Positions 1 through 11,448 of a stretch of 64,000 bases of DNA are shown here, in pieces. The translations under genes and the position numbers were made by a program. Position 1 is the stretch's first letter. Each line of letters starts with the position of its first letter. Under the pieces are notes generated by a model that saw only the letters and a list, made by a program, of their open reading frames with translations, was not told the origin of the DNA and made no database searches. Where the stretch lies: contig CAWBMV010000036.1 of the NCBI GenBank assembly GCA_963789955.1, positions 152,142-216,141 of the forward strand, written 5' to 3'. This stretch comes from an uncultured Candidatus Rokubacteria bacterium (GTDB taxonomy: Bacteria > Methylomirabilota > Methylomirabilia > Rokubacteriales > CSP1-6).

Positions 1-260
1 AGCGAGCGCGCCTTCGGGACGTCGATCTCGCTCGTGAGCGCCGAGCCGCCGAAGCGCCGCAGGTCGACCGGCACCACGATGTGCCGCGTGACGCCGAGGT
101 GTTTCGCGACGTCCGCGGCCTTCTCGATCTCGATGCGGTGACGCTGGCCGTAGTCGAAGGTCAGCGCATAGAGCGTGAAGCCCTGCGAGCGCGCGATGGC
201 GGCGGAGGTGCTGGAATCGAGGCCTCCGCTCAGAAGGACCACCGCCCGTCGCTCCACCAT
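1..260 (-). CDS. queC: 7-cyano-7-deazaguanine synthase QueC (5' part; runs off the window)
   Basis: Absent from the ORF track. Manual translation from ATG 260: MVERRAVVLLSGGLDSSTSAAIARSQGFTLYALTFDYGQRHRIE...RFGGSALTSEIDVP, with SGGLDS and FDYGQRH motifs; GAGGAG RBS upstream. Confidence 0.93.
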   Translation of the reverse strand, partial: MVERRAVVLLSGGLDSSTSAAIARSQGFTLYALTFDYGQRHRIEIEKAADVAKHLGVTRHIVVPVDLRRFGGSALTSEIDVPKARS

Positions 261-272
261 GGGCTCCTCGAT

Positions 273-1412
273 TCAGCTCCGCGTCGGCAGCTCGACGACC
301 CCGCTGCCGAGCACCGACAGCTCGCCGTCCTGATTGCGCGCTTCCTGCTCGATCTCGACCAGGTGCCGGCCGTTCTCGATGCGCTTCGTCTTGACCGTGC
401 CGTCGATCCGCAGGGTGTCGCCTTCGGGGTTGTGGCGGCGGATCTTGCAGTACGCGCCGCGGAGGAACCCGTCGTCGCCCATCCAGTTGGTCAGATGATG
501 TGTGAGCCACGAGCACCGCTCGGGGCCGTAATCGTAAGCCCCCGGCGCGCCGACCATGGTCGCGAACTCCTGCTCCCAGTGGACGCGCTCCGGGCAGTCG
601 GGAATGCCGAAGCGGTTCTTGATGCCCAGACCCGAATGACGATGCACCTGCTTCCAGGCGAGCTTGTTCGCCCGGATGTAGAGGCCGCCCCAGCCCTGCG
701 CATAGGCGATGAAGCCCGTCACGGTCATCGGCCCCTTCGCCATCGTCGGCAGCCGCTCGCCCTCGCGCACGTCGTCCCAGTACCGCGGGGTGCCGCCGCG
801 GATCTGCTCGTTCGCGTAGAGCCGGTAGACGTCGGCGAGCTCCTCGTCGGTGTAGCGCTTGGGAGGCTTCGCCTTCACCGCGGTGTACTTGGTCCCGGCT
901 TCGCGCGCCTGGTCACGATCGGTGCGAAAGCACCAGCTGTCGGCGGCGGCGACGAGGTCCCCGCGCTGGTTGTAGAAGTCGACGTGATAGACCTGCTGGA
1001 TCGAGCGGCCCGCGAACGTCGTCTGGTGCTCGATCAGCTCCTTGAGCCATGCCTCGGTCGTGATCGCGTCGTTGCGCCGCACCGGGTGGTGCCACGTCCA
1101 GTCCGCCCCGGCCCACATCGCGTGCACGCCCGGCAGCCCGCCGACATAGCCCGAGATGATCCGGCTCGTGGCAAAGAGAAAGCTCGGCGGCGCGACCACG
1201 CCACCCCAGCGTGTGCCGGCGGCGTACTCGGGATCGCACCAGAGCGGGTTGTCGTCGCCGATGCCGTGCGCGTAGTGGCGCAGGTTGTCGCGCGTGGCCT
1301 CGTGGCACCACGGCTCGAGCGTGTCCGTGATCTTGACGCCGATCCGGCGGCGCAGGTCATCGAGGCCCTGCTCGGTGATCTTCGGAAAAAGCGTCGTCGT
1401 CTCACGGGGCAT
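273..1412 (-). CDS. Double hot-dog (MaoC/FAS1-like) dehydratase
   Basis: 379 aa with two MaoC-like halves (RHYAHGIGDDNPLW...APPSF; YWDDVREGERLP...RVHWE). Confidence 0.85.
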   Translation of the reverse strand: MPRETTTLFPKITEQGLDDLRRRIGVKITDTLEPWCHEATRDNLRHYAHGIGDDNPLWCDPEYAAGTRWGGVVAPPSFLFATSRIISGYVGGLPGVHAMWAGADWTWHHPVRRNDAITTEAWLKELIEHQTTFAGRSIQQVYHVDFYNQRGDLVAAADSWCFRTDRDQAREAGTKYTAVKAKPPKRYTDEELADVYRLYANEQIRGGTPRYWDDVREGERLPTMAKGPMTVTGFIAYAQGWGGLYIRANKLAWKQVHRHSGLGIKNRFGIPDCPERVHWEQEFATMVGAPGAYDYGPERCSWLTHHLTNWMGDDGFLRGAYCKIRRHNPEGDTLRIDGTVKTKRIENGRHLVEIEQEARNQDGELSVLGSGVVELPTRS

Positions 1413-2969
1413 GCGTGGGCTCCACGGCGCTCGCCTCGGATTCGCGAAGCGCCTTGCGGTTGACCTTGCCGGCGGGCGTCTTGGGCAGCGCCGCCACGAA
1501 CGCGACGCGCCGCGGGTATTCGTGCTGGCTGAGCCGCGTGCGCGTGAAATCCTGCAGCTCGCGGGCGAACGCGTCGTCGCCGCCGCGCGCGCTCACGATG
1601 AACGCCTTGACCACCTGGCCGCGCAGCGCGTCGGCGACGCCGATCACCGCCGCCTCGCGCACGTCCGGATGCCGGAGCAGCACGTCCTCGATCTCGATCG
1701 CGCTCATGGTCCAGCCGGCCGAGATGATGACATCGTCGGCGCGCCCGGCGTGATAGAAGTAGCCATCGCCGTCCACGTGGCCTCGATCCTTCGTCGGAAA
1801 CCAGGCATCGCGTCGCCACACCTTGATCTCGCCGATCTGGTCCGGCGGGCAGGGACGTCCGTCGGCGTCCTGCACCTCGACGCGGACGCCGGGGACGGGC
1901 TTTCCGAGTGCGCCGGGCTTGACGGCGTAATCGGCGGCGCCCGGATAGTCGGCCAGGATCACACCGACCTCGGTCGTCCCGTACATGCTGCACACGCGCG
2001 TGCCGAACGTCGCCTCGACGAACGCGCGTGCTGGCGCTGTCCATCGGCTCGCCGGTGAACGACAGCTTGCGGATGCCGTAGCGATACGCGCCGGCCTGTC
2101 CGGAGCTCTTCAGCATGCGATAGTGCGTCGCCGCGGCCGCCACGTTGGTCACGTCGTACTCCTGCAGCGCGCGGAGCATCCGGACCGGATCGAACTTGCC
2201 GGCCATCGTCCCGGTGGTGACGCCGAGCGCCAGCGGCGCGAGCGTGCCGTGCCAGAGGCCGTGCCCCCACGCGGGCGAGGACGGGCAGAAGAAGCGATCG
2301 CCCGGCCGGATGCCCGTGCCGTAGAGTGCTGCGACCATGAGCGCGACGATCGCGCGCTGGGGATGGCGCACCGCAGCCGGCAGCTCCCGCGTCGTGCCCG
2401 ACGTGTACTGAAAGACCGCGAGGTCGTCGGCGGCGCTCCGCACCTCGTAGTGGGCCGGGAGCGCCGCCAGCGTGGACAGCGAACGCGTCGTCGGCCACCA
2501 CGACCTCGAGCCCGGCGATGGCGCGCGCGGTGTCGGCCTTCTCGGCGTTGGTCAGCAGGAGCCGCGGCGTGCAGTCTTCGACCCGCAGCCGGACACCGTC
2601 GGGCCCGAACAGGGTGAACAGCGGCACCGCGATGGCGCCGCGCTTGATGGCGCCGAACAGGGCGGCGTAGAAGGCCAGCGACGGCTCGAGCATGATCGCC
2701 ACGCGGTCGCCGGGGGCGACGCCGCGCGCCGCGAGCCAGTGGGCGAAGCGCGCGGACCACTCGGACAGATCACGAAACCCGAGCGTCTCGTCGCGCCCGT
2801 CGGCATGGGCGACGCGGACCGCGACGCGACCGGAGCCGGCGTGCCGGTCCAGGCACTCGACGGCGATGTTCAGCGACTCGCGGCCGCCGTCGAAGAGCGA
2901 CCACAGCGCCGCGGATTGGAAGTGCCGGTGGGCGTCGGCGTAGGCCGTGTAGTCCGTCAGTCGCATCAT
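1402..2969 (-). CDS. Acyl-CoA synthetase (AMP-forming), frameshifted
   Basis: Pieces in ORFs 1959-2969, 1034-2443 and 1402-1995 give YTSGTT, YGTTEVG, GRADDVIISAG and LPKTPAGK motifs; indels near 2450-2480 and 2030. Confidence 0.85.
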
Positions 2970-3001
2970 GGCTCCCGGGTCCCATTGTATAAGGACAGCG
3001 C

Positions 3002-4237
3002 ATGACCTCGGGTCGCGGCGGACTCTTGCTGGGCGGCGCCTTCGTGACCTTCGCCATCAGCGCCGCGCTGATGCATTCCTACGCCGTCTTCCTGGTCGCG
3101 TTCCTCGAGGAGTTCGGCTGGAGCCGCGCCGAGACGTCGCTGGCCTTCTCGGTCTCCGCGTTCGTGAGCGGTGCGAGCGCGCCCTTCGTCGGCGCGCTCG
3201 TCGACCGCCTCGGGCCTCGCCGGCTCGTGCTGCTCGGCGGGGGCGTGCTGGCGCTCGGGCTCCTGGGCAGCGCCTACGTCGTCGCGCTCTGGCAGCTGGT
3301 CGTGCTCTACGGCATCCTCATGACGCTCGGAGCCAACTGCCTTGGGCTCGTCGTGTTCGTGCCCATCCTCTCGCGCCGCTTCGTGAGCAATCGGGGCATG
3401 GCGATCTCGATCGTCCAGTCGGCGAACGGCTTCGCGCGCGCCGTGTCGGCGCCGCTCGCGCAGATCCTGATCTCGACGATCGGCTGGCGGCACGCGTATC
3501 TCGCGCAAGCGGCGCTGATGGGTGTGCTCGTCTGGCCACTCGCCGCCCTGTTCCGGCGTGATGAGCCGCCGGCGCCCGTCGCGCCGCCGAGCCCGTCGTT
3601 CCGGGGCGAGGGCGTCGGCGCGGGTCCTCCGGCGCGCCGCGACTGGACCCTGGCCGAAGCGATCGCCACGTCACACTTCTGGCTCCTGTTCACGGTGTAC
3701 CTCTGCACGGGCCTCGGGAGCTTCTTCGTCTCGCTGCACCAGCTCGCGTTCGCGGTCGATGCCGGGTTCGACAAGCTCTACGCCGCCAGCGTGCTCGGCC
3801 TGGGCGCCTTGTTGTCCGTCGGCGGCACGATCGTCACGGGGACGCTCTCGGATTACATCGGCCGTGAGGTCTCCGCCGTCCTCGCCTACGCGGTCTCGAT
3901 CGTCGGCGTGATCTGCGCGCTCTTCATCACGGGCCCTGGCGACGCCTGGCTGCTCTGGATCCACGCGTGCTTCTTTGGCCTCACCTGGGGCGCGCGCGGC
4001 CCGGCGATCACCGCCAAGACCGCCGATCTGTTCCCGGGGCGAAACCTGGGCACCATCCTGGGTGTCATCACGGTCGGCACCGGCATCGGCTCGGCCGTCG
4101 GCGCGTGGGGCGCCGGCTGGATCTTCGACGTCTCCGGCAGCTATCGGCTCGCGTTCCTGGCATCGATCGCGTCCTACCTGGTGGGCTGCGTGGCGTTCTG
4201 GGGGCTGCGCCGGCCGCCGACGCGGCAGGTGGTATAA
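3002..4237 (+). CDS. MFS transporter
   Basis: 411 aa with about 12 hydrophobic segments and GALVDRLGPRR motif A. Confidence 0.9.
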   Translation: MTSGRGGLLLGGAFVTFAISAALMHSYAVFLVAFLEEFGWSRAETSLAFSVSAFVSGASAPFVGALVDRLGPRRLVLLGGGVLALGLLGSAYVVALWQLVVLYGILMTLGANCLGLVVFVPILSRRFVSNRGMAISIVQSANGFARAVSAPLAQILISTIGWRHAYLAQAALMGVLVWPLAALFRRDEPPAPVAPPSPSFRGEGVGAGPPARRDWTLAEAIATSHFWLLFTVYLCTGLGSFFVSLHQLAFAVDAGFDKLYAASVLGLGALLSVGGTIVTGTLSDYIGREVSAVLAYAVSIVGVICALFITGPGDAWLLWIHACFFGLTWGARGPAITAKTADLFPGRNLGTILGVITVGTGIGSAVGAWGAGWIFDVSGSYRLAFLASIASYLVGCVAFWGLRRPPTRQVV

Positions 4238-4246
4238 CAGTCGGCG

Positions 4247-5371
4247 ATGGACTTCCACGCGTTCATGTACGTCACGATCGGGCGGCGCCGCGAGCTCGAG
4301 CGGGGTATGGCCGGCAAGGATCCCGTGCTCTACCAGCGCATGCTGGACGAGATCGGGGAGTATGCGCGCACGTGCGATTCGACCGGCTGGTCGGGCATCG
4401 GTATCCCCGAGCATCACCTGCAGATCGAGGGGTTCGAGCTCGGTCAAGATCCGGGCCTCATGGCGATGTTCCTCGGCACGCACGGCCCGCGCCTGCGCAT
4501 CAACCAGTTCGGCTACGTGCTGCCCACGCACAATCCGCTGCGCGTGGCCGAGCACGCGGCCACGCTCGACCATCTGCTCGGCGGCCGGCTCAACGTCGCG
4601 TTCGTGCGCGGCTATCAAGCGCGATGGTTCGAGAACTACGCCGCCGTGCCCGGCGCCAAGGCCACGGGGCCGTGGAACCGCAAGAGCGACGAGGACGCGC
4701 GCAACCGCGAGCTCTTCGAGGAGTGCGTGGCCATCATCAAGACCGCGTGGGCCAACGACACGTTCGCCTTCAAGGGCAAGTACTGGTCGTACCCACCGGA
4801 AGGCCAGCGCCAGCCGCATCCGCATCCGGTCTACCTGAAGTACGGCCGCGGCGTCGACGCCGACGGTACGATCCGCGAGGTCGGCATCGCGCCGCGCCCG
4901 TTGCAGAATCCGATTCCCGTCTACTCGGGCTTCACGCATAGCCTGCAAACCTCGCTCTACTGGGCGCGGGAAGGCGGCAAGCCCATCGTGATGGCCAGCG
5001 AGATGGACTTCTGCGAGATGCTCTGGAGCCGCTATCGTGAAGAAGCCGAGCGTCACGGCCGCGACGTGCCGCGCGGCGAAGAAGCGGCGTGGGGCGGCTA
5101 TCTCGTGCTCGCCGACACGAAGAGCGAGGCGGAGGCGTGGGCCGAGGACTGTCTCTGGATGTGGGACTCGTGGTCCGTGCCCTTCGGCCAGGACCGGCCG
5201 CCGCTCCTGATCGGCGACGCCGACACCGTCACGCGCATGATCGAGAACGCGGCGCGCCACGTGCCGTTCAACGAGATGTTCCTGCTGTTCGGCCAGGGCA
5301 TTCTCGAACGCGACCGCTGCGTGAAGACGCTCGAGCTGTTTGCCGAGAAGGTCATTCCCCGGTTCCGCTAG
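4247..5371 (+). CDS. LLM-class (luciferase-like) flavin-dependent oxidoreductase
   Basis: PEHH, HNPLRVAEHAATLDHLLGGRL and C-terminal LELFAEKVIPRF motifs. Confidence 0.9.
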   Translation: MDFHAFMYVTIGRRRELERGMAGKDPVLYQRMLDEIGEYARTCDSTGWSGIGIPEHHLQIEGFELGQDPGLMAMFLGTHGPRLRINQFGYVLPTHNPLRVAEHAATLDHLLGGRLNVAFVRGYQARWFENYAAVPGAKATGPWNRKSDEDARNRELFEECVAIIKTAWANDTFAFKGKYWSYPPEGQRQPHPHPVYLKYGRGVDADGTIREVGIAPRPLQNPIPVYSGFTHSLQTSLYWAREGGKPIVMASEMDFCEMLWSRYREEAERHGRDVPRGEEAAWGGYLVLADTKSEAEAWAEDCLWMWDSWSVPFGQDRPPLLIGDADTVTRMIENAARHVPFNEMFLLFGQGILERDRCVKTLELFAEKVIPRFR

Positions 5372-5398
5372 TGCGCTCGAGCCTACGCCGGTGATGTC

Positions 5399-5839
5399 TT
5401 GCGCGCCCTGCTGCTGACGCTGCACGTTCTCGGAGCGTGCGTGTGGACGGGCGGGCATCTGGTGCTCGCGGTCGCCGTGCTTCCGCGCGCGCTGGCTCGA
5501 CGCGATTCCCGCATCCTGCGCGGATTCGAGGAGCCCTTCGAGCGGATCGGAATTCCTGCGCTCGTCGTTCAGGTGCTGACCGGGCTCTGGCTCGCCGGTC
5601 AGTTCGTCCCGATAACCCGCTGGCTCGCGTTCGGCAGCGCGCTCGAAGTGCGTGTGGGCACGAAGCTGCTCTTGCTCGGACTCACCGTGGCGCTCGCGCT
5701 CCACGCTCGGCTGCGCGTGATCCCCCGTCTCGACGAGTCCGGCCTGGGGCTGCTCGCGACGCACATCGTGATCGTGACGGTTCTGGCGGTCGCCCTCGTC
5801 GTCGTCGGCGTCAGCTTTCAGACGGGCCGGCTCTTTTAG
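5399..5839 (+). CDS. CopD-like 4-TM membrane protein
   Basis: LHVLGACVWTGGH, FERIGIPAL..QVLTG and KL.LL...ALHARLR patterns; TTG start. Confidence 0.7.
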   Translation: MRALLLTLHVLGACVWTGGHLVLAVAVLPRALARRDSRILRGFEEPFERIGIPALVVQVLTGLWLAGQFVPITRWLAFGSALEVRVGTKLLLLGLTVALALHARLRVIPRLDESGLGLLATHIVIVTVLAVALVVVGVSFQTGRLF

Positions 5840-5870
5840 CGACGCGCGCCGGCGAACCCGCGGTCCCTCG

Positions 5871-6209
5871 CTATGCCCTGATCATCACGAGGATCATCTT
5901 GAATGGCGTGATTGCCTTGACCGCGTGTGGCTGACCGGCGGGCAGCCTGAGAAGTTGGCCCGCTGAAACGTCGTGGGCGAGGCCCGCGATGGAAATTTCC
6001 GCCTTTCCGTCGACTCCAAGGACCAGCGCGTCATACGGCGCGGTATGCTCGCTGAGCGCTTCGCCCGCGTCGAATGCGAACGCGGTCACGGTGCCGGCGG
6101 ACTTCTTGACGAGCGTACGGCTGACGACCGAGCCCGGCTGATACTCGACGAGCCCGAGCTGCGCGATCACTCCTTGGAGCTCGCCCGCATGTTTTGGATC
6201 GGCGGTCAC
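5871..6209 (-). CDS. Cupin-domain protein
   Basis: C-terminal 112 aa of ORF 5871-6749: FAFDAGEALSEHTAPYDA...LPAGQPHAVKA; GTG start with AGGAG upstream. Confidence 0.85.
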   Translation of the reverse strand: MTADPKHAGELQGVIAQLGLVEYQPGSVVSRTLVKKSAGTVTAFAFDAGEALSEHTAPYDALVLGVDGKAEISIAGLAHDVSAGQLLRLPAGQPHAVKAITPFKMILVMIRA

Positions 6210-6223
6210 GAAGCTCTCTCCTG

Positions 6224-6247
6224 GTACATCGCGTCCTCCTGGCTTGT
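6224..6247. repeat. 24-bp direct repeat, copy 1 (copy 2 at 7154-7177)
   Basis: gtacatcgcgtcctcctggcttgt versus gtacatcgcgccctcctggcttgt (1 mismatch); on the minus strand each copy is an RBS followed by ATG TAC. Confidence 0.8.
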
Positions 6248-6274
6248 CCCAGAATAGTCCCGGCGTTCCGGTGC

Positions 6275-7159
6275 TCAGCGCGAGAAAAAGTCTCGGAGAT
6301 TCGCGTAGGTCTCGTCGGGCGCCTGCTCGGCTGGATAGTGGCCGCAGGGCAGCGCGATGCAGCCGGCGAGATTGGTGACGTAGGTCGACCAGCCCTTCTC
6401 GTATCCGTAGAACTTGGCCGTGTGGCTCTGGCCGCCGACGATCACCAGCACGGGGCAGGCGATCTTGTTCCCCGCGTCGAGGTCTTTCTTGTCCATCTCG
6501 AAGTCGATCGTGGCGCCGGCGCGGTAGTCCTCGCAGACGCCGTGGATGTTCTCGGGCGTGCAGCAGCGCACGTATTCTCGGATGGCGTCTTCGGTGAAGC
6601 CGCCCTTGCCCAGCCCCTGGGAGCCGAGCTTGAGGCGGATGTAGTACTCCTCCTTGCCGGCCAGGAGACGCTCGGGGAAATCGTACGGCTGCGCCATGAA
6701 CGACCAGTGATAACTGTTGAGCGCCCATTCGCGCGTGACGTGCGTCCACACGTGATGGGTCGGCAGGATGTCGATCGCGCAGAGCTTCTGCACCGCCGCC
6801 GGATGGTCGAGCGTCATGCGATAGGCGGTGCGCGCGCCCCGATCGTGGCCGGCCACCATGAATCGCTCGAAGCGGAGCTCGCGCATGACGTCGACCTGGT
6901 CCTGCGCCATGCGTCTGAACGAGTAGTTGCTGTGGTCGGGTAACCCGCGGGGCTTGCCGCTGTCACCGTAGCCGCGCAGGTCGGTGGCGACCACGGTGAA
7001 GTCCTTGGCCAGGCGCGGAGCGACGAAGCGCCAGTGGTAGTACGTGAGCGGATTGCCGTGCAGGAGCAGCACCGGCGGGCCCGATCCGCCCACCACCCCA
7101 CGGATCGTCACTTGTGGATCGCTGGTCTGGATGTCGAAGCGGCGGAAGCCCTCGTACAT
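6275..7159 (-). CDS. Alpha/beta hydrolase, haloacetate (fluoroacetate) dehalogenase family
   Basis: Start MYEGFRRF after AGGAGG; LLHG, DLRGYGDS, GHDRGAR, YHWSF, CEDYRAG and CGHY motifs. Confidence 0.85.
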   Translation of the reverse strand: MYEGFRRFDIQTSDPQVTIRGVVGGSGPPVLLLHGNPLTYYHWRFVAPRLAKDFTVVATDLRGYGDSGKPRGLPDHSNYSFRRMAQDQVDVMRELRFERFMVAGHDRGARTAYRMTLDHPAAVQKLCAIDILPTHHVWTHVTREWALNSYHWSFMAQPYDFPERLLAGKEEYYIRLKLGSQGLGKGGFTEDAIREYVRCCTPENIHGVCEDYRAGATIDFEMDKKDLDAGNKIACPVLVIVGGQSHTAKFYGYEKGWSTYVTNLAGCIALPCGHYPAEQAPDETYANLRDFFSR

Positions 7160-7177
7160 CGCGCCCTCCTGGCTTGT
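7154..7177. repeat. 24-bp direct repeat, copy 2 (RBS/start of the dehalogenase)
   Basis: Matches 6224-6247 at 23 of 24 positions. Confidence 0.8.
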
Positions 7178-7237
7178 GCGAGAGTTTATCCTGCTCCCGG
7201 GTAGGGCAACAGACGGAGCACCGACAGGAGGGCACGA

Positions 7238-7873
7238 GTGGTGGGCTTTGAGATCAGGACGGCCGAGGAGTTCGCCGCGCGCGACCTGCAGAGCCTCTGG
7301 CCGGCTCGACGCGCCGCGCGCGGGAGGCCGGAGTTCCGGCGTGTCCTCCAGCTCTTCGTCGAGCGAGGCGGACCGGTTCTCATCGACGAGATGTCCCAGG
7401 CTCTCGTTGCTCTGGATGACGAGGACCTGATCCGTATCCAGGACGGGAAAATCGACGTCGCGTATCCCTTTACGGCGTCGCCCACTTCGTTTGCGGTACG
7501 GCTGCCCGATGGTCAGGAGAGGTTCGCCTGCTGCGCCGTGGACGCGCTCGGCATCGCGCCGATGATCGGGCAACCGGTCGAGATCCGCTCGCGCTGCCAT
7601 CATTGCGGGGCGCCGCTCGATCTGACGTCGACCCCGGAGGGGCCGCGACCTGAAGGGTCGGACGTGATGCTCTGGATCGGCCAGCGGGCCGACGATCGCT
7701 GCAAGATCGCCGATTCGCTCTGAACGACGATCAACTTCTTCCGGTCGGAAGAGCACCTGAGGGCGTGGCGAGCCGAGAATCCAGCCGCAGAAGGCGCCGG
7801 CACCACGCTCATCGAAGGCTTCAAGCTCGGCGCGCGAATCTTCGGCGGCCTGCTCACAGGAGAGCGCAGATGA
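7238..7873 (+). CDS. MerB-like organometallic lyase, predicted selenoprotein (Sec at TGA 7721-7723; 211 aa)
   Basis: [13 protein letters not shown] and SRCHHCG motifs. Reading through TGA gives [19 protein letters not shown]...GARIFGGLL, matching the MerB C-x-x-x-(H/N)FF region. SECIS follows; the stop overlaps the next ATG (ATGA). Confidence 0.85.
7735..7753 (+). promoter_or_regulatory. Bacterial SECIS element
   Basis: CT-T-CTTCCG-GT-CGGAAG-AG hairpin starting 11 nt after the UGA, with a bulged U and G-GU-C apex like E. coli fdhF. Confidence 0.8.
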
Positions 7874-8661
7874 CACCAGGAACCGAGGAGGTCAAGGTCG
7901 CGCGGGACGGTCGCGTCATGACGATTACCCTGGACAGACCGGGCGATCAGAACCGGCTGACGCGAGACGTGCTGCTGGCCTTGCAGGGAATCGTCGAGTG
8001 CCTCAGGGAGGACGACGAGACTCAGGCTGTCGTCATCGCCGGTGCCGGCGCCGAATTCTTCTCGATGGGGATCCTGAATCCGATCGTCCGGGCGAGCTAC
8101 ACGAAGGACCAGATCCTCGACATGGTCCGCACGGCGAATCGTCTCTACGACGCGCTCGAAGCCCTGCCACAGATCGTGATCGTGGCGTTCAACGGCGCCG
8201 CGCGCGCGGGCGCGGCCGAGCTCTCGCTCGCGTGCGATATCCGGCTGGCGGCGGCTCACGCGACGTGGGCGCTGCCCGAAGCGCTGTGGGGCGGGTTCCC
8301 GGGCGCCGGCGGCCCCGTCCGCCTGCCGGGTATCGTCGGCCGGGCGCGGGCGCTCGAGCTGATCTGCACCGGGCGCGAGATCGACGCCGCCGAGATGGAA
8401 CGGCTCGGGCTCGTGCTCGCGGTCTATCCCGCGGCGCGACTGCTTGCCGAGGCGCAGGCACTCGCCGCCCGCATCTCGGCCAGCGGCCCGATCGCGACGC
8501 GAGGCGCCAAGCGCATCATGAACGTCCGCAACACGGCCGGCTTCGGCGCGGCGCGGGAGCTGTCAGACGCGCTTCGTCACGCCCTGGAGTGGAGCAAAGA
8601 CATCGACGAGGGGATGATCGCGCACCGCGAGCATCGCGCGCCTCGCTTCACCGGACGCTGA
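7870..8661 (+). CDS. Enoyl-CoA hydratase/isomerase family protein
   Basis: [37 protein letters not shown] and R.PRFTGR motifs. Confidence 0.88.
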
Positions 8662-8671
8662 CCGCCCAGCG

Positions 8672-9873
8672 TCAGCCGACGGTGACCGGTTTGATCTCGC
8701 GAAGACGCGGCAGCACTTCGTTCGAGAAGAGGCGGATGCTCTTTTCCGACTCGGCGTGGGTCATGAAGCCGGAGCGGCCGACCAGGCTCAGGTGGCCGAA
8801 GCCGCCGACCTTGTCGTAGAAGTCCATGACCTGCTTGTAGACGCTGTCCGGGTTGCCCGCGAACAGGATGCCCTGCGCCATGGCCTGCTCGGCGCTCAGC
8901 GACGTGAGCCGCGCGGCGTTCTGACCCGCCGAGAGCACGCCTGCCGGCGGTCCCGCCTTCGGCGCCGTCCGATAGATCTGCGGCGCGGCCTCGGGCGGCG
9001 CGGTGCCGGGCAGGAAGCTCGAGTACTGCGGAGCCGACTTGAGGCTCGTGTGGAGGAACCAGAGGAGCTTGCTCGCCGACGCGGAGCCCCTCTTCGTCCG
9101 TGTCGCCGACGTAGACGAAGGCCGCGTAGGCGAAGTTGTCGGTCGTCACCTTCGGCAAGCCCAGCTCGGCGCGCGCCTTGCGATGCGCCGCGTAGGCCCG
9201 CTTCGTGCCCTCGGGCCCGCGCAGGACGAGGACGTGCACCAGGCCGCGCCGCCCGACCTCGGCCGCGGTCTCGGGATCCCCGGTGGCCGACCACATGCGG
9301 GGATGCGGCTGCTGCCACGGGCGGGGCCAGATGTTCACGTGACGGTGCGTGAAGTGCTTGCCCTCCCAGCTGAACGGGCCGTCGTGATGACTGAGCGCCT
9401 TCTTGATGAGGTCGATCGCCTCCCAGTAGCGCTCGATGTTGTTCACGGGGTTCGCGTTGTTCGACGCCATCTCGGTGCCGCCCGATTTGACGAAGCCGAT
9501 CTCGAGCCGGCCGCGCGAGATGACGTCCGCCGTCGCGTACTCCTCGGCGACCCGCACCGGGTCTTTTCGGAGCGATATCAAGGTGCCGAGGCTGAGGATC
9601 CGCACCTGACGTGTCTGGCGGGCGAGGATGCCGACCAGCAGCGGATTGGCGCCGAGGAGCGAGTTGATCCCGGCGTGGTGCTCCACCGCCAGAACGTTCA
9701 GGCCGAGGTCGTCGCACAGGAGAAACTCGTCGATGACCTCCTCGAACAGGTCGGCGGCCACCTTCGGATCGCAATAGCGATTGGGCAGGCTGGCGCGGAC
9801 GGAGTCGGTCGCGTTGATGCACTTCCTGAGGCACGAACGGGTACGGAACTTCGCACTGCCACCAAGCGTCCAT
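8672..9873 (-). CDS. LLM-class flavin-dependent oxidoreductase, frameshifted
   Basis: EHH, DPVRVAEEYATADVISRGRLEIG and SIRLFSNEVLPRL spread over three frames; indels near 9820 and 9075. Confidence 0.85.
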
Positions 9874-9897
9874 CGTGCTCTCTCCCCGAAAGCCGCG

Positions 9898-10668
9898 TCA
9901 GCGATTCAGGAACTTCACGACCGTGTCGACGAAGGCTCTGGCCTGCTCGATCTCGGGATGATGACCGGCGCGCTCGATCAGCTCGAAGCGCGAGCCGGGG
10001 ATCAGCTCGCTGTAGGCGCGCCCGTACGACGGCTTCACGATGCCGTCGCTGGCGCCCCACACGACGAGCGTCGGCACCGCGATGCGGCGCAGCCAGCGCT
10101 TGAGCTGCGGATTGTACATGTACGGATTCCAGCCGTAGAGACAGAGCGCGTCCCAGTTGCGGGCGCGGATGACGAGCTCGTCATCGGACAGGGCGTCGAG
10201 ATCGGGCGTCCACGTCGCGGGATCGTGCCAGCTCCGCCGCTGCACCTCCGGCGGCGCCGTGTTGAAGACGTCCAGAATGTCCTGCGTCTCGCGGTCGCTG
10301 ATCTTGATGCCGAAGGCGTCGACCAGCACGAGCCCGTCGAGCCGATGGCCGCACTTGACGGCGATCTCCGCGGCCAGCCATCCGCCGAACGAGAGCCCCA
10401 TCAACGTCACCTTCTCGTGAGGCAGCGCCTCGAGCACGTCCAGATAGAAGTGGACGAGGTCGTACACGGTCTCGAAGTCCGCCGGGCGCACCGACCGCCC
10501 GAAGCCCGGATGGGACGGAGCGATGATCTCGGCGTGATGGCCGAGCATGTCCAGAAACGGCGCCCGCGGCTCGACGGTCTGCGCTCCGTGCAGCAGCAGC
10601 ACGGGACGACCGGCGCCGCGTCGCAGCACTTCCAGCTCGATTCCCCCGACGACGAGCCCCGCTGACAT
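9898..10668 (-). CDS. Alpha/beta hydrolase
   Basis: LLLHG, HPGFG, GLSFGG nucleophile elbow and AGHHP; ATG after GGAGGAG. Confidence 0.88.
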   Translation of the reverse strand: MSAGLVVGGIELEVLRRGAGRPVLLLHGAQTVEPRAPFLDMLGHHAEIIAPSHPGFGRSVRPADFETVYDLVHFYLDVLEALPHEKVTLMGLSFGGWLAAEIAVKCGHRLDGLVLVDAFGIKISDRETQDILDVFNTAPPEVQRRSWHDPATWTPDLDALSDDELVIRARNWDALCLYGWNPYMYNPQLKRWLRRIAVPTLVVWGASDGIVKPSYGRAYSELIPGSRFELIERAGHHPEIEQARAFVDTVVKFLNR

Positions 10669-10718
10669 AGCTCCTCCGCGCTTCGAGCGCATAGGGTAGC
10701 ATGCGAGGGGGTGACGAC

Positions 10719-11448
10719 ATGGACATGGTCGTTCGCGTTCTCTTGCTCGGACTGGTCGTGATGGCGATCGGTGTGATCGGAGACGCGCGCGCCCAGACGC
10801 CGTCGCCGGCTCAGACGCCGACACCCGCCCCGATCGTCGGCAACATCTACTCGGTCACGTACATCGAGGTCATGCCGATCTCGAAGGCGGAGGCCGTCAC
10901 CCTGCTCCGTCGCTACCGCGAGACCGCGCAAAAGGAAGGCGGCAATCTGCGCTGCGAGGTCGTGCAGCGCATCGATCAGCCGCACCAGTTCGCGATCTTC
11001 GAGATCTGGAAGGACCAGGCGGCGTTCGAGGCTCACGGCAAGAGTCCCGAGCACCACCGAGACGCGCGAGAAGATCGCCTCGATCCGCAACGCGCCGACC
11101 GACGAGCGGGTGCACACCGCCCTATCGATCGGGCCGATCGACGCGCCCGCGGCGCGCGGCGGCATCTACGTCGCGACGCACGTGGACGTCATTCCCCCGC
11201 GCAAGGACGACGGCGTCGCCGCGCTCAAGCGGCTGGGCGAGGACAGCCGCCGGGATCACGACAATCTCCGCTTCGAGGTCGTCCAGCAGATCAGCCGGCC
11301 GAATCACTTCACGGTGATCGAGATCTGGCGCGACGCCAAGGCGGTCGAGACGCACTCGATGGCGGCGCCGACGCGCGAGTTCCGCGACAAGCTCGCGACG
11401 ATGACGGGTGCCTTGTACGACGAGCGGATGTATCGGGCGATCGACTGA
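10719..11448 (+). CDS. Exported protein with tandem ABM (antibiotic biosynthesis monooxygenase) domains, frameshifted
   Basis: Signal peptide ending ARA-Q, then two repeats of NLR.EVVQ.I..P..F...EIW.D..A.E.H; indel near 11045; exact start uncertain. Confidence 0.75.

Follow-up and report, generated by a model that had tools for sequence, protein, structure and literature searches.

The window analysed here, a 64,000-nt stretch of DNA from an uncultured Candidatus Rokubacteria bacterium, carries a gene for a MerB-fold protein that, under translation table 11, stops at TGA 7721-7723 after 161 aa. Read-through of this UGA adds 49 sense codons and gives a protein of 211 aa, the stop of which (TGA 7871-7873) shares its first two bases with the ATG (7870-7872) of a crotonase-family gene; on re-reading the sequence, the 161-aa frame, the 49 further codons, the 211-aa product and the stop/ATG overlap of the original prediction all proved to be correctly placed (Table 1). 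Against the Pfam MerB profile (PF03243) the read-through protein scores 104.9 bits, for a cut-off of 27, and the profile is spanned from 1 to 126 of its 126 positions solely when the UGA is read through. A sigma-70 promoter was looked for at the MerB-like gene and none was found. The local surroundings are luciferase-like monooxygenases, alpha/beta hydrolases, an MFS transporter and an acyl-CoA synthetase.

Table 1. Features at the MerB-like locus, in window coordinates
Feature	Position	Strand	Remarks
Alpha/beta-hydrolase gene	6275..7165	-	Divergent; 72 bp upstream of the MerB-like gene; a neighbour only
Shine-Dalgarno-like AGGAGGG	7226..7232	+	5 nt 5' of GTG 7238; homologue starts coincide
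Gene for predicted MerB-fold selenoprotein, 211 aa	7238..7873	+	GTG start; in-frame UGA is codon 162; true stop 7871-7873
C98-C99-A-V-D102	7529..7543	+	C99 = MerB Cys96; D102 = MerB Asp99; extra C98 at MerB Trp95
C120-H-H-C123	7595..7606	+	C120 = MerB Cys117; CxxC not in E. coli MerB
UGA, predicted Sec162	7721..7723	+	Aligned to MerB Cys159
C-terminal part, 49 codons	7724..7870	+	No in-frame ATG/GTG/TTG; purifying selection
Putative bacterial SECIS, fdhF-like, 19 nt	7735..7753	+	GGUC apical loop 7743-7746, 19 nt from UGA
Crotonase/enoyl-CoA hydratase-family gene	7870..8661	+	Start overlaps the stop of the MerB-like gene (ATGA)

The acyl-CoA synthetase gene (1034-2969, minus strand) and a luciferase-like gene (8577-9873, minus strand) appear to be split over frames in the window and are intact in relatives; together with a frameshift in a further MerB-fold gene on contig C14, these splits hint at indel errors in the host assembly (G000). 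Positions 1-12112 of contig C2 of the same assembly are a near-duplicate of window positions 258-11426 (93-97% identical, 82% in one part) with the same TGA in the MerB-like gene; this is probably a co-binned strain, and it was not counted as a paralogue.

We compared codon 162 across homologues to see how the UGA is used. The codon was present in all 153 fetched loci that were aligned, and in the 131 distinct ones it is TGA in 115, TGC in 8 and TGT in 8, with no other codon represented. The TGA is followed by 43-54 codons in 112 of the 115 TGA loci. Among 32 close homologues, in which pairs are non-independent, dN/dS is 0.24 before the UGA and 0.21 after it, and pS, at 0.385 over the 100 codons that lead up to the UGA, drops to 0.001 in the 7 hairpin codons and returns to 0.401 after them. 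The equal dN/dS and the pattern of pS around the UGA indicate that the tail is coding, and the frozen synonymous sites in the hairpin codons indicate that the hairpin is selected as RNA. Thus, both things that the original prediction had proposed looking for, an alternation of Cys and TGA at residue 162 and conservation downstream of it, are found in these loci (16 Cys to 115 TGA). Out of 251 genomes in the phylum, 80 are matched at E<=1e-40, and in 76 of these the match contains an in-frame TGA, the position of which was verified in the fetched genomes only; the 76 include the unpublished G076 and G217, and the named close homologues belong to Candidatus Rokuibacteriota. The gene is covered by contigs from two runs, one of DNA and one of an RNA library; among the matches listed, none differs at 7721-7723 and none extends across the codon by 31 letters in both directions, so that neither the codon nor transcription is proven by them. 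Two further runs gave raw-read matches to the hairpin only, within other genes.

That the UGA is instead a true stop or an assembly error, leaving a truncated protein or a pseudogene, or that it is read as Cys or Trp, is very improbable and has been largely refuted by these comparisons. Database entries of 161-173 aa all take the UGA as a stop, and among the best 120 listed homologues 111 cover 74-76% of the query and end one residue before it (the others being 7 full-length proteins with Cys at 162, 1 with Ser and a shifted tail, and 1 with a gap); TGA is moreover the commonest true stop of the family, ending 88 of the 115 TGA loci. However, the remaining 27 end with TAG (15) or TAA (12), and neither codon ever stands at 162, while the TGA is common to 115 independently assembled loci, purifying selection is equal downstream, synonymous sites are frozen and the 49-codon tail offers no restart codon. 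Further points against this alternative are the absence of TGG at the site from every homologue and a tRNA-SeC(TCA) in the genome.

The hairpin itself begins exactly 11 nt 3' of the UGA. Its fold has an energy of -7.5 kcal/mol (z -1.5), equalled by 18 of 200 shuffles; this is not significant and speaks, if anything, for a true stop, and we rejected the energy alone as evidence. Even so, a GGUC loop on at least 4 pairs at the same distance follows only 111 of the 74,935 TGA codons of the genome that come after at least 30 open codons. The exact 12-nt core of the hairpin is present in 109 of the 115 TGA loci versus 0 of the 16 Cys loci, a thin control, as the same four residues occur in 1 Cys locus only, and a weaker test than that of the synonymous sites above; background codon use would be expected to give this core in about 3 of 100 FRSE peptides. 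The stem is nearly invariant, so that there is almost no covariation: two single substitutions still allow a G-U pair, and the stem is a different one in four distant TGA loci. The hairpin fits the bacterial SECIS consensus model given in PMC13188914 (a loop of 3-9 nt with a G, a stem of 4-16 bp, a spacing of 16-37 nt and an MFE <= -7.5), with an energy exactly at the threshold.

The host genome (87% complete, 5% contaminated) has selA, selB, selC and selD, the search for which had been suggested along with the original prediction. The tRNA-SeC(TCA), the product of selC, adjoins selA (592 bits, cut-off 268) and selB (359 bits, cut-off 242) on contig C1, and selD lies on contig C6 (304 bits, cut-off 125). 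In selD (C6:164400-165326), too, an in-frame TGA falls at the catalytic motif, with a hairpin that differs from that of the MerB-like gene; this provides an internal control for UGA recoding in this organism. Elsewhere on the same contig (C6:128189, minus strand), a DsbA/thioredoxin-like FSDYQ-U-PYC motif with a GGUC hairpin points to another likely hidden selenoprotein. We also considered the phylogenetic profile of selA across the 251 genomes and rejected it as support, since carriers and phylum are alike (88% and 86% with selA), most hosts of Cys forms also have selA, and the profile does not discriminate; at E<=1e-80 selA was not found in 9 of the 76 carriers, five of which are at least 89% complete. 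Consistent with the original view of the protein as a Sec enzyme, the sel genes, the conservation past the TGA, the restriction of codon 162 to TGA and Cys codons and the synonymous constraint on the hairpin lead us to conclude, on sequence comparison, that the ribosome almost certainly reads UGA162 as selenocysteine.

In phmmer alignments C99, D102, C120 and U162 fall on MerB Cys96, Asp99, Cys117 and Cys159, which agrees with the earlier placement of the UGA at the second catalytic Cys. C99, D102 and C120 are invariant in all 115 TGA loci and C123 is present in 104, while C98 is found in 112 of the 115 versus 0 of the 15 Cys loci in that alignment. The CCAVD motif had been equated as a whole with Cys96/Asp99; the motif and its Asp stand, but it is the second Cys, C99, that corresponds to Cys96, with C98 at the position of Trp95. 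An AlphaFold2 model with Cys in place of Sec (pLDDT 85, with loop 151-161 under 50) returned MerB structures only in Foldseek (E 7e-11, TM 0.64 to 3F0O), and in VIA it aligned over 187 residues to 5C17 (Z 18.3, rmsd 3.3), the next family being the copper chaperone NosL (Z 5.4). Of the MerB signature described in PMC8261052, Cys96, Asp99 and Cys117 are present and Cys159 is replaced by Sec. The protein falls below the NCBIfam MerB cut-offs (63.9 of 193 for NF009710, 51.9 of 200 for NF033555); since Bacillus MerB3 does so as well, the low score does not exclude lyase activity.

Further proteins of this fold with a TGA at an active-site position occur in the phylum. The 12-nt SECIS core is found four times in the host genome, and three of the four copies belong to MerB-fold genes, where they follow the TGA at a distance of 15 nt. 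On contig C14 (83770-84480, minus strand; L088) lies a second, distant MerB-fold gene with CGFEA for CAVDA and a TGA followed by the same core; a frameshift in the assembly parts its N-terminal segment from the TGA. From 18 loci with weak MerB-like matches (L211-L228) we recovered 17. Each of these carries a TGA where MerB has a catalytic Cys, in L226 the first one, and the same core recurs in 15 of them, in groups with CGFEA, CGLEA and CAWDA that are about 28-35% identical. Judged by these features, several predicted Sec-MerB families coexist in the phylum. Two distant Sec-MerB genes (L057 and L059, in genomes G057 and G049) lie in ArsR-MerB-MerF-like-MerT-like units and have a different SECIS, with a GUAC loop at the same distance; near them is a flavoprotein without the C-terminal Cys pair of MerA.

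Another way to view the gene is through its neighbours. The flanks of the 115 TGA loci extended over 1-14 kb, so that counts of neighbours are lower bounds: at least 30 loci have a MerT-like neighbour, at least 50 a LysW-like double zinc-ribbon protein and at least 32 a crotonase, and crotonase and MerT-like neighbours never occur together at one locus. With 22-33 bits, the MerT-like protein stays far below the cut-off of 150. Among the 16 Cys loci 10 have a MerT-, MerF-like or MerA neighbour, and for distant Cys relatives the setting is an ArsR-MerB-MerF/MerT-like unit, in one case an operon with a true MerA. The original caution that the substrate may not be organomercury is a fair one; the mercury-type neighbourhoods of the outer clade members (MerT-like, MerF, ArsR, sometimes MerA) favour a mercury or soft-metal ancestry. 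The double zinc-ribbon protein (96 aa in the example at L063:7873-8163) is found 3' of many Sec-MerB genes and mer-type operons in the phylum, and is possibly a metal carrier.

The absence of merA and merT noted for the window extends to the host genome, in which the search for MerA gave nothing over cut-off (the best matches are lipoamide dehydrogenase-like or lack the C-terminal Cys pair) and no MerT, nor the MerT-like, MerF-like, ArsR or zinc-ribbon neighbours of relatives, were found at 87% completeness. Across the 251 genomes, many of them incomplete MAGs, MerA is over cut-off in 8, including 2 of the 76 carriers; a MerT-like gene is present in 16 of the 76, and 59 have neither. It is common for a finished genome to have MerB and no MerA, a pattern so far without an explanation (PMC8261052).

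In a FastTree phylogeny (173 columns, with weak deep nodes and no true SaoL among the sequences), the crotonase-linked members form a clade of 33 tips with a support of 0.98, of which 32 are crotonase-linked. This clade is nested within MerT-linked Sec members, and the Cys forms occur at scattered points of the Sec clade. The crotonase-family protein of the window keeps both usual catalytic Glu residues and has FSMGILN at the oxyanion-hole motif, which is usually FSAGxD in this family. The clade bears on the strongest alternative, that the Sec enzyme has been reused for non-mercury chemistry (on another organometal or organometalloid, or in C-S or C-Se cleavage) in the surrounding catabolic cluster, with the crotonase translationally coupled to it and hence dependent for its expression on UGA read-through and so on selenium. 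We regard this combination as unlikely. The ATGA/GTGA overlap between the two genes is retained in 32 of 32 loci, MerA and MerT-like genes are absent from all 7 genomes with a crotonase-linked MerB-like gene, the C98 and CHHC motifs are new, and Haft and Gwadz (bioRxiv 10.1101/2022.07.06.499078) argue for a possibly wider range of substrates with Sec at this site. However, the crotonase has an orthologue (70-89% identical) in 42 genomes, from 15 genera, and this adjoins the MerB-like gene in 7 only, all of one genus; 24 of 30 fetched crotonase loci are without it, and the neighbours of other clade members are unrelated and shifting. A functional link between the two genes is thus unsupported beyond one genus, and the position 5' of the crotonase is most likely a genus-level relocation and not the sign of a shared pathway.

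Our preferred reading, to which we give a probability of roughly 60%, is that the protein is a Sec-containing organomercurial or soft-metal lyase that works like MerB but without MerA. SelB binds a GGUC hairpin just 3' of a UGA and delivers Sec-tRNA; here this would yield the 211-aa protein with Cys99, Asp102 and Sec162 at the three catalytic positions of MerB. In MerB, two soft ligands bind the metal and an Asp protonates the carbon. By analogy, Cys99 and the selenolate of Sec162 would be the metal ligands, for an organomercurial or some comparable soft organometal, and Asp102 would donate a proton to the leaving carbon, with the metal ion remaining bound. The family may have originated in mercury-type operons, the host lineage retaining the enzyme after the loss of its MerT-like and MerA partners, in which case the bound Hg(II) would have to be handed to thiols of the cell or to selenide, or else be kept on the protein, rather than going to MerA. 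Weighing against a MerB-like activity are the identity of 20-27%, the changed residues at the Trp95 and Cys160 positions, the poorly modelled loop 151-161 and the mostly absent mer partners, and turnover could suffer if the Hg-Se bond is very tight.

If turnover were slight, the protein might act as a stoichiometric soft-metal sink or chaperone, in which Cys98, Cys99 and Sec162 trap Hg(II), methylmercury, Cu or Ag and MerA is unneeded. The rarity of MerA among carriers, the extra Cys beside the site, the fold match to NosL and the strong binding of Hg by bio-selenols reported in PMC5039623 are all consistent with such a role. However, pure binding has no need of Asp102, the counterpart of the MerB proton donor, which is nonetheless invariant, and Cys revertants occur inside the clade; we therefore consider a sink improbable, more so than reuse for other chemistry.

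A wider proposition is that soil Rokubacteria hold a large hidden set of Sec-MerB proteins (this clade and at least three distant groups with the same SECIS) that split organomercurials and, in the absence of MerA, clear the Hg by selenium chemistry. We hold this to be doubtful, although, if true, it would mean an uncounted microbial sink for methylmercury and the first selenoprotein of mercury resistance, where Haft and Gwadz state that they found none (bioRxiv 10.1101/2022.07.06.499078); Sec members of the wider group adjoin MerT-like, MerF-like and ArsR genes. The merB survey of PMC8261052 selects on Cys159 in called proteins, a filter that would miss Sec-MerB genes whose called products end at residue 161; very few Rokubacteria appear in its table, as against the 76 of 251 genomes of the phylum with a strong match and an in-frame TGA. 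In the crotonase-linked genus, UGA read-through may couple a downstream catabolic gene to the supply of selenium. The clade also offers a natural Cys/Sec pair for probing the role of selenium at the MerB site, and a handle on MerB without MerA. Our literature search returned no paper on the Rokubacterial clade; Haft and Tolstoy 2025, Deng et al. 2026 (groundwater selenoproteomes, including Methylomirabilota) and the bioRxiv supplements may list it, and a term search of the deep-Sep paper (PMC12013277) gave no mention of MerB.

Three known systems allow the locus to be placed. The hairpin had been called fdhF-type, and it shares with the E. coli fdhF SECIS (RefSeq) the 11-nt spacer, two basal pairs, the GGUC apex and a U at the third position that is able to bulge; it differs in stem sequence and in an upper stem of 5 bp versus 4 bp in fdhF, and the best ViennaRNA fold does not include the predicted bulge. 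In the case of MerB (EC 4.99.1.2; PDB 3F0O, 3F2F and 1S6L, and MerB2 5C17), fold and length (211 versus 212 aa) agree and Cys96, Asp99 and Cys117 are kept. However, Cys159 is replaced by the predicted Sec162, Cys160 by T163 and Trp95 by C98, a CHHC motif is added, identity to solved MerB is 20-27%, and the host genome has no mer operon with MerA or MerT. Thus, the protein is not a canonical MerB.

The closest precedent is SaoL (NCBIfam NF040728), a MerB-like organometallic lyase selenoprotein of 52 anaerobe loci (bioRxiv 10.1101/2022.07.06.499078) that is also listed in two reviews. The original prediction had rightly pointed out that the class of Sec-containing MerB-like proteins is not new. 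Like the present protein, SaoL has the MerB fold, the equivalents of Cys99 and Asp102, a Sec that replaces Cys159 about 50 residues from the C-terminus, and records cut short in databases. Unlike SaoL, which has a CU motif, the present protein has L-U-T, with residue 161 commonly L, Y, H or F across the 115 loci; it scores 61 bits against the NF040728 cut-off of 140, is 20% identical to a clostridial SaoL-like protein, and comes from soil Rokubacteria in place of anaerobes, with mercury-type neighbours in outer clade members. The nine-gene SAO neighbourhood is replaced locally by crotonase, hydrolases and luciferase-like monooxygenases; genome-wide, SaoB and SaoC gave no match in searches whose controls contained no positive, and SaoP was not over cut-off. 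Lacking the CU motif, the score and the neighbourhood, the protein was rejected as a member of SaoL. The published SaoL substitution limits the surprise of finding Sec at the MerB site.
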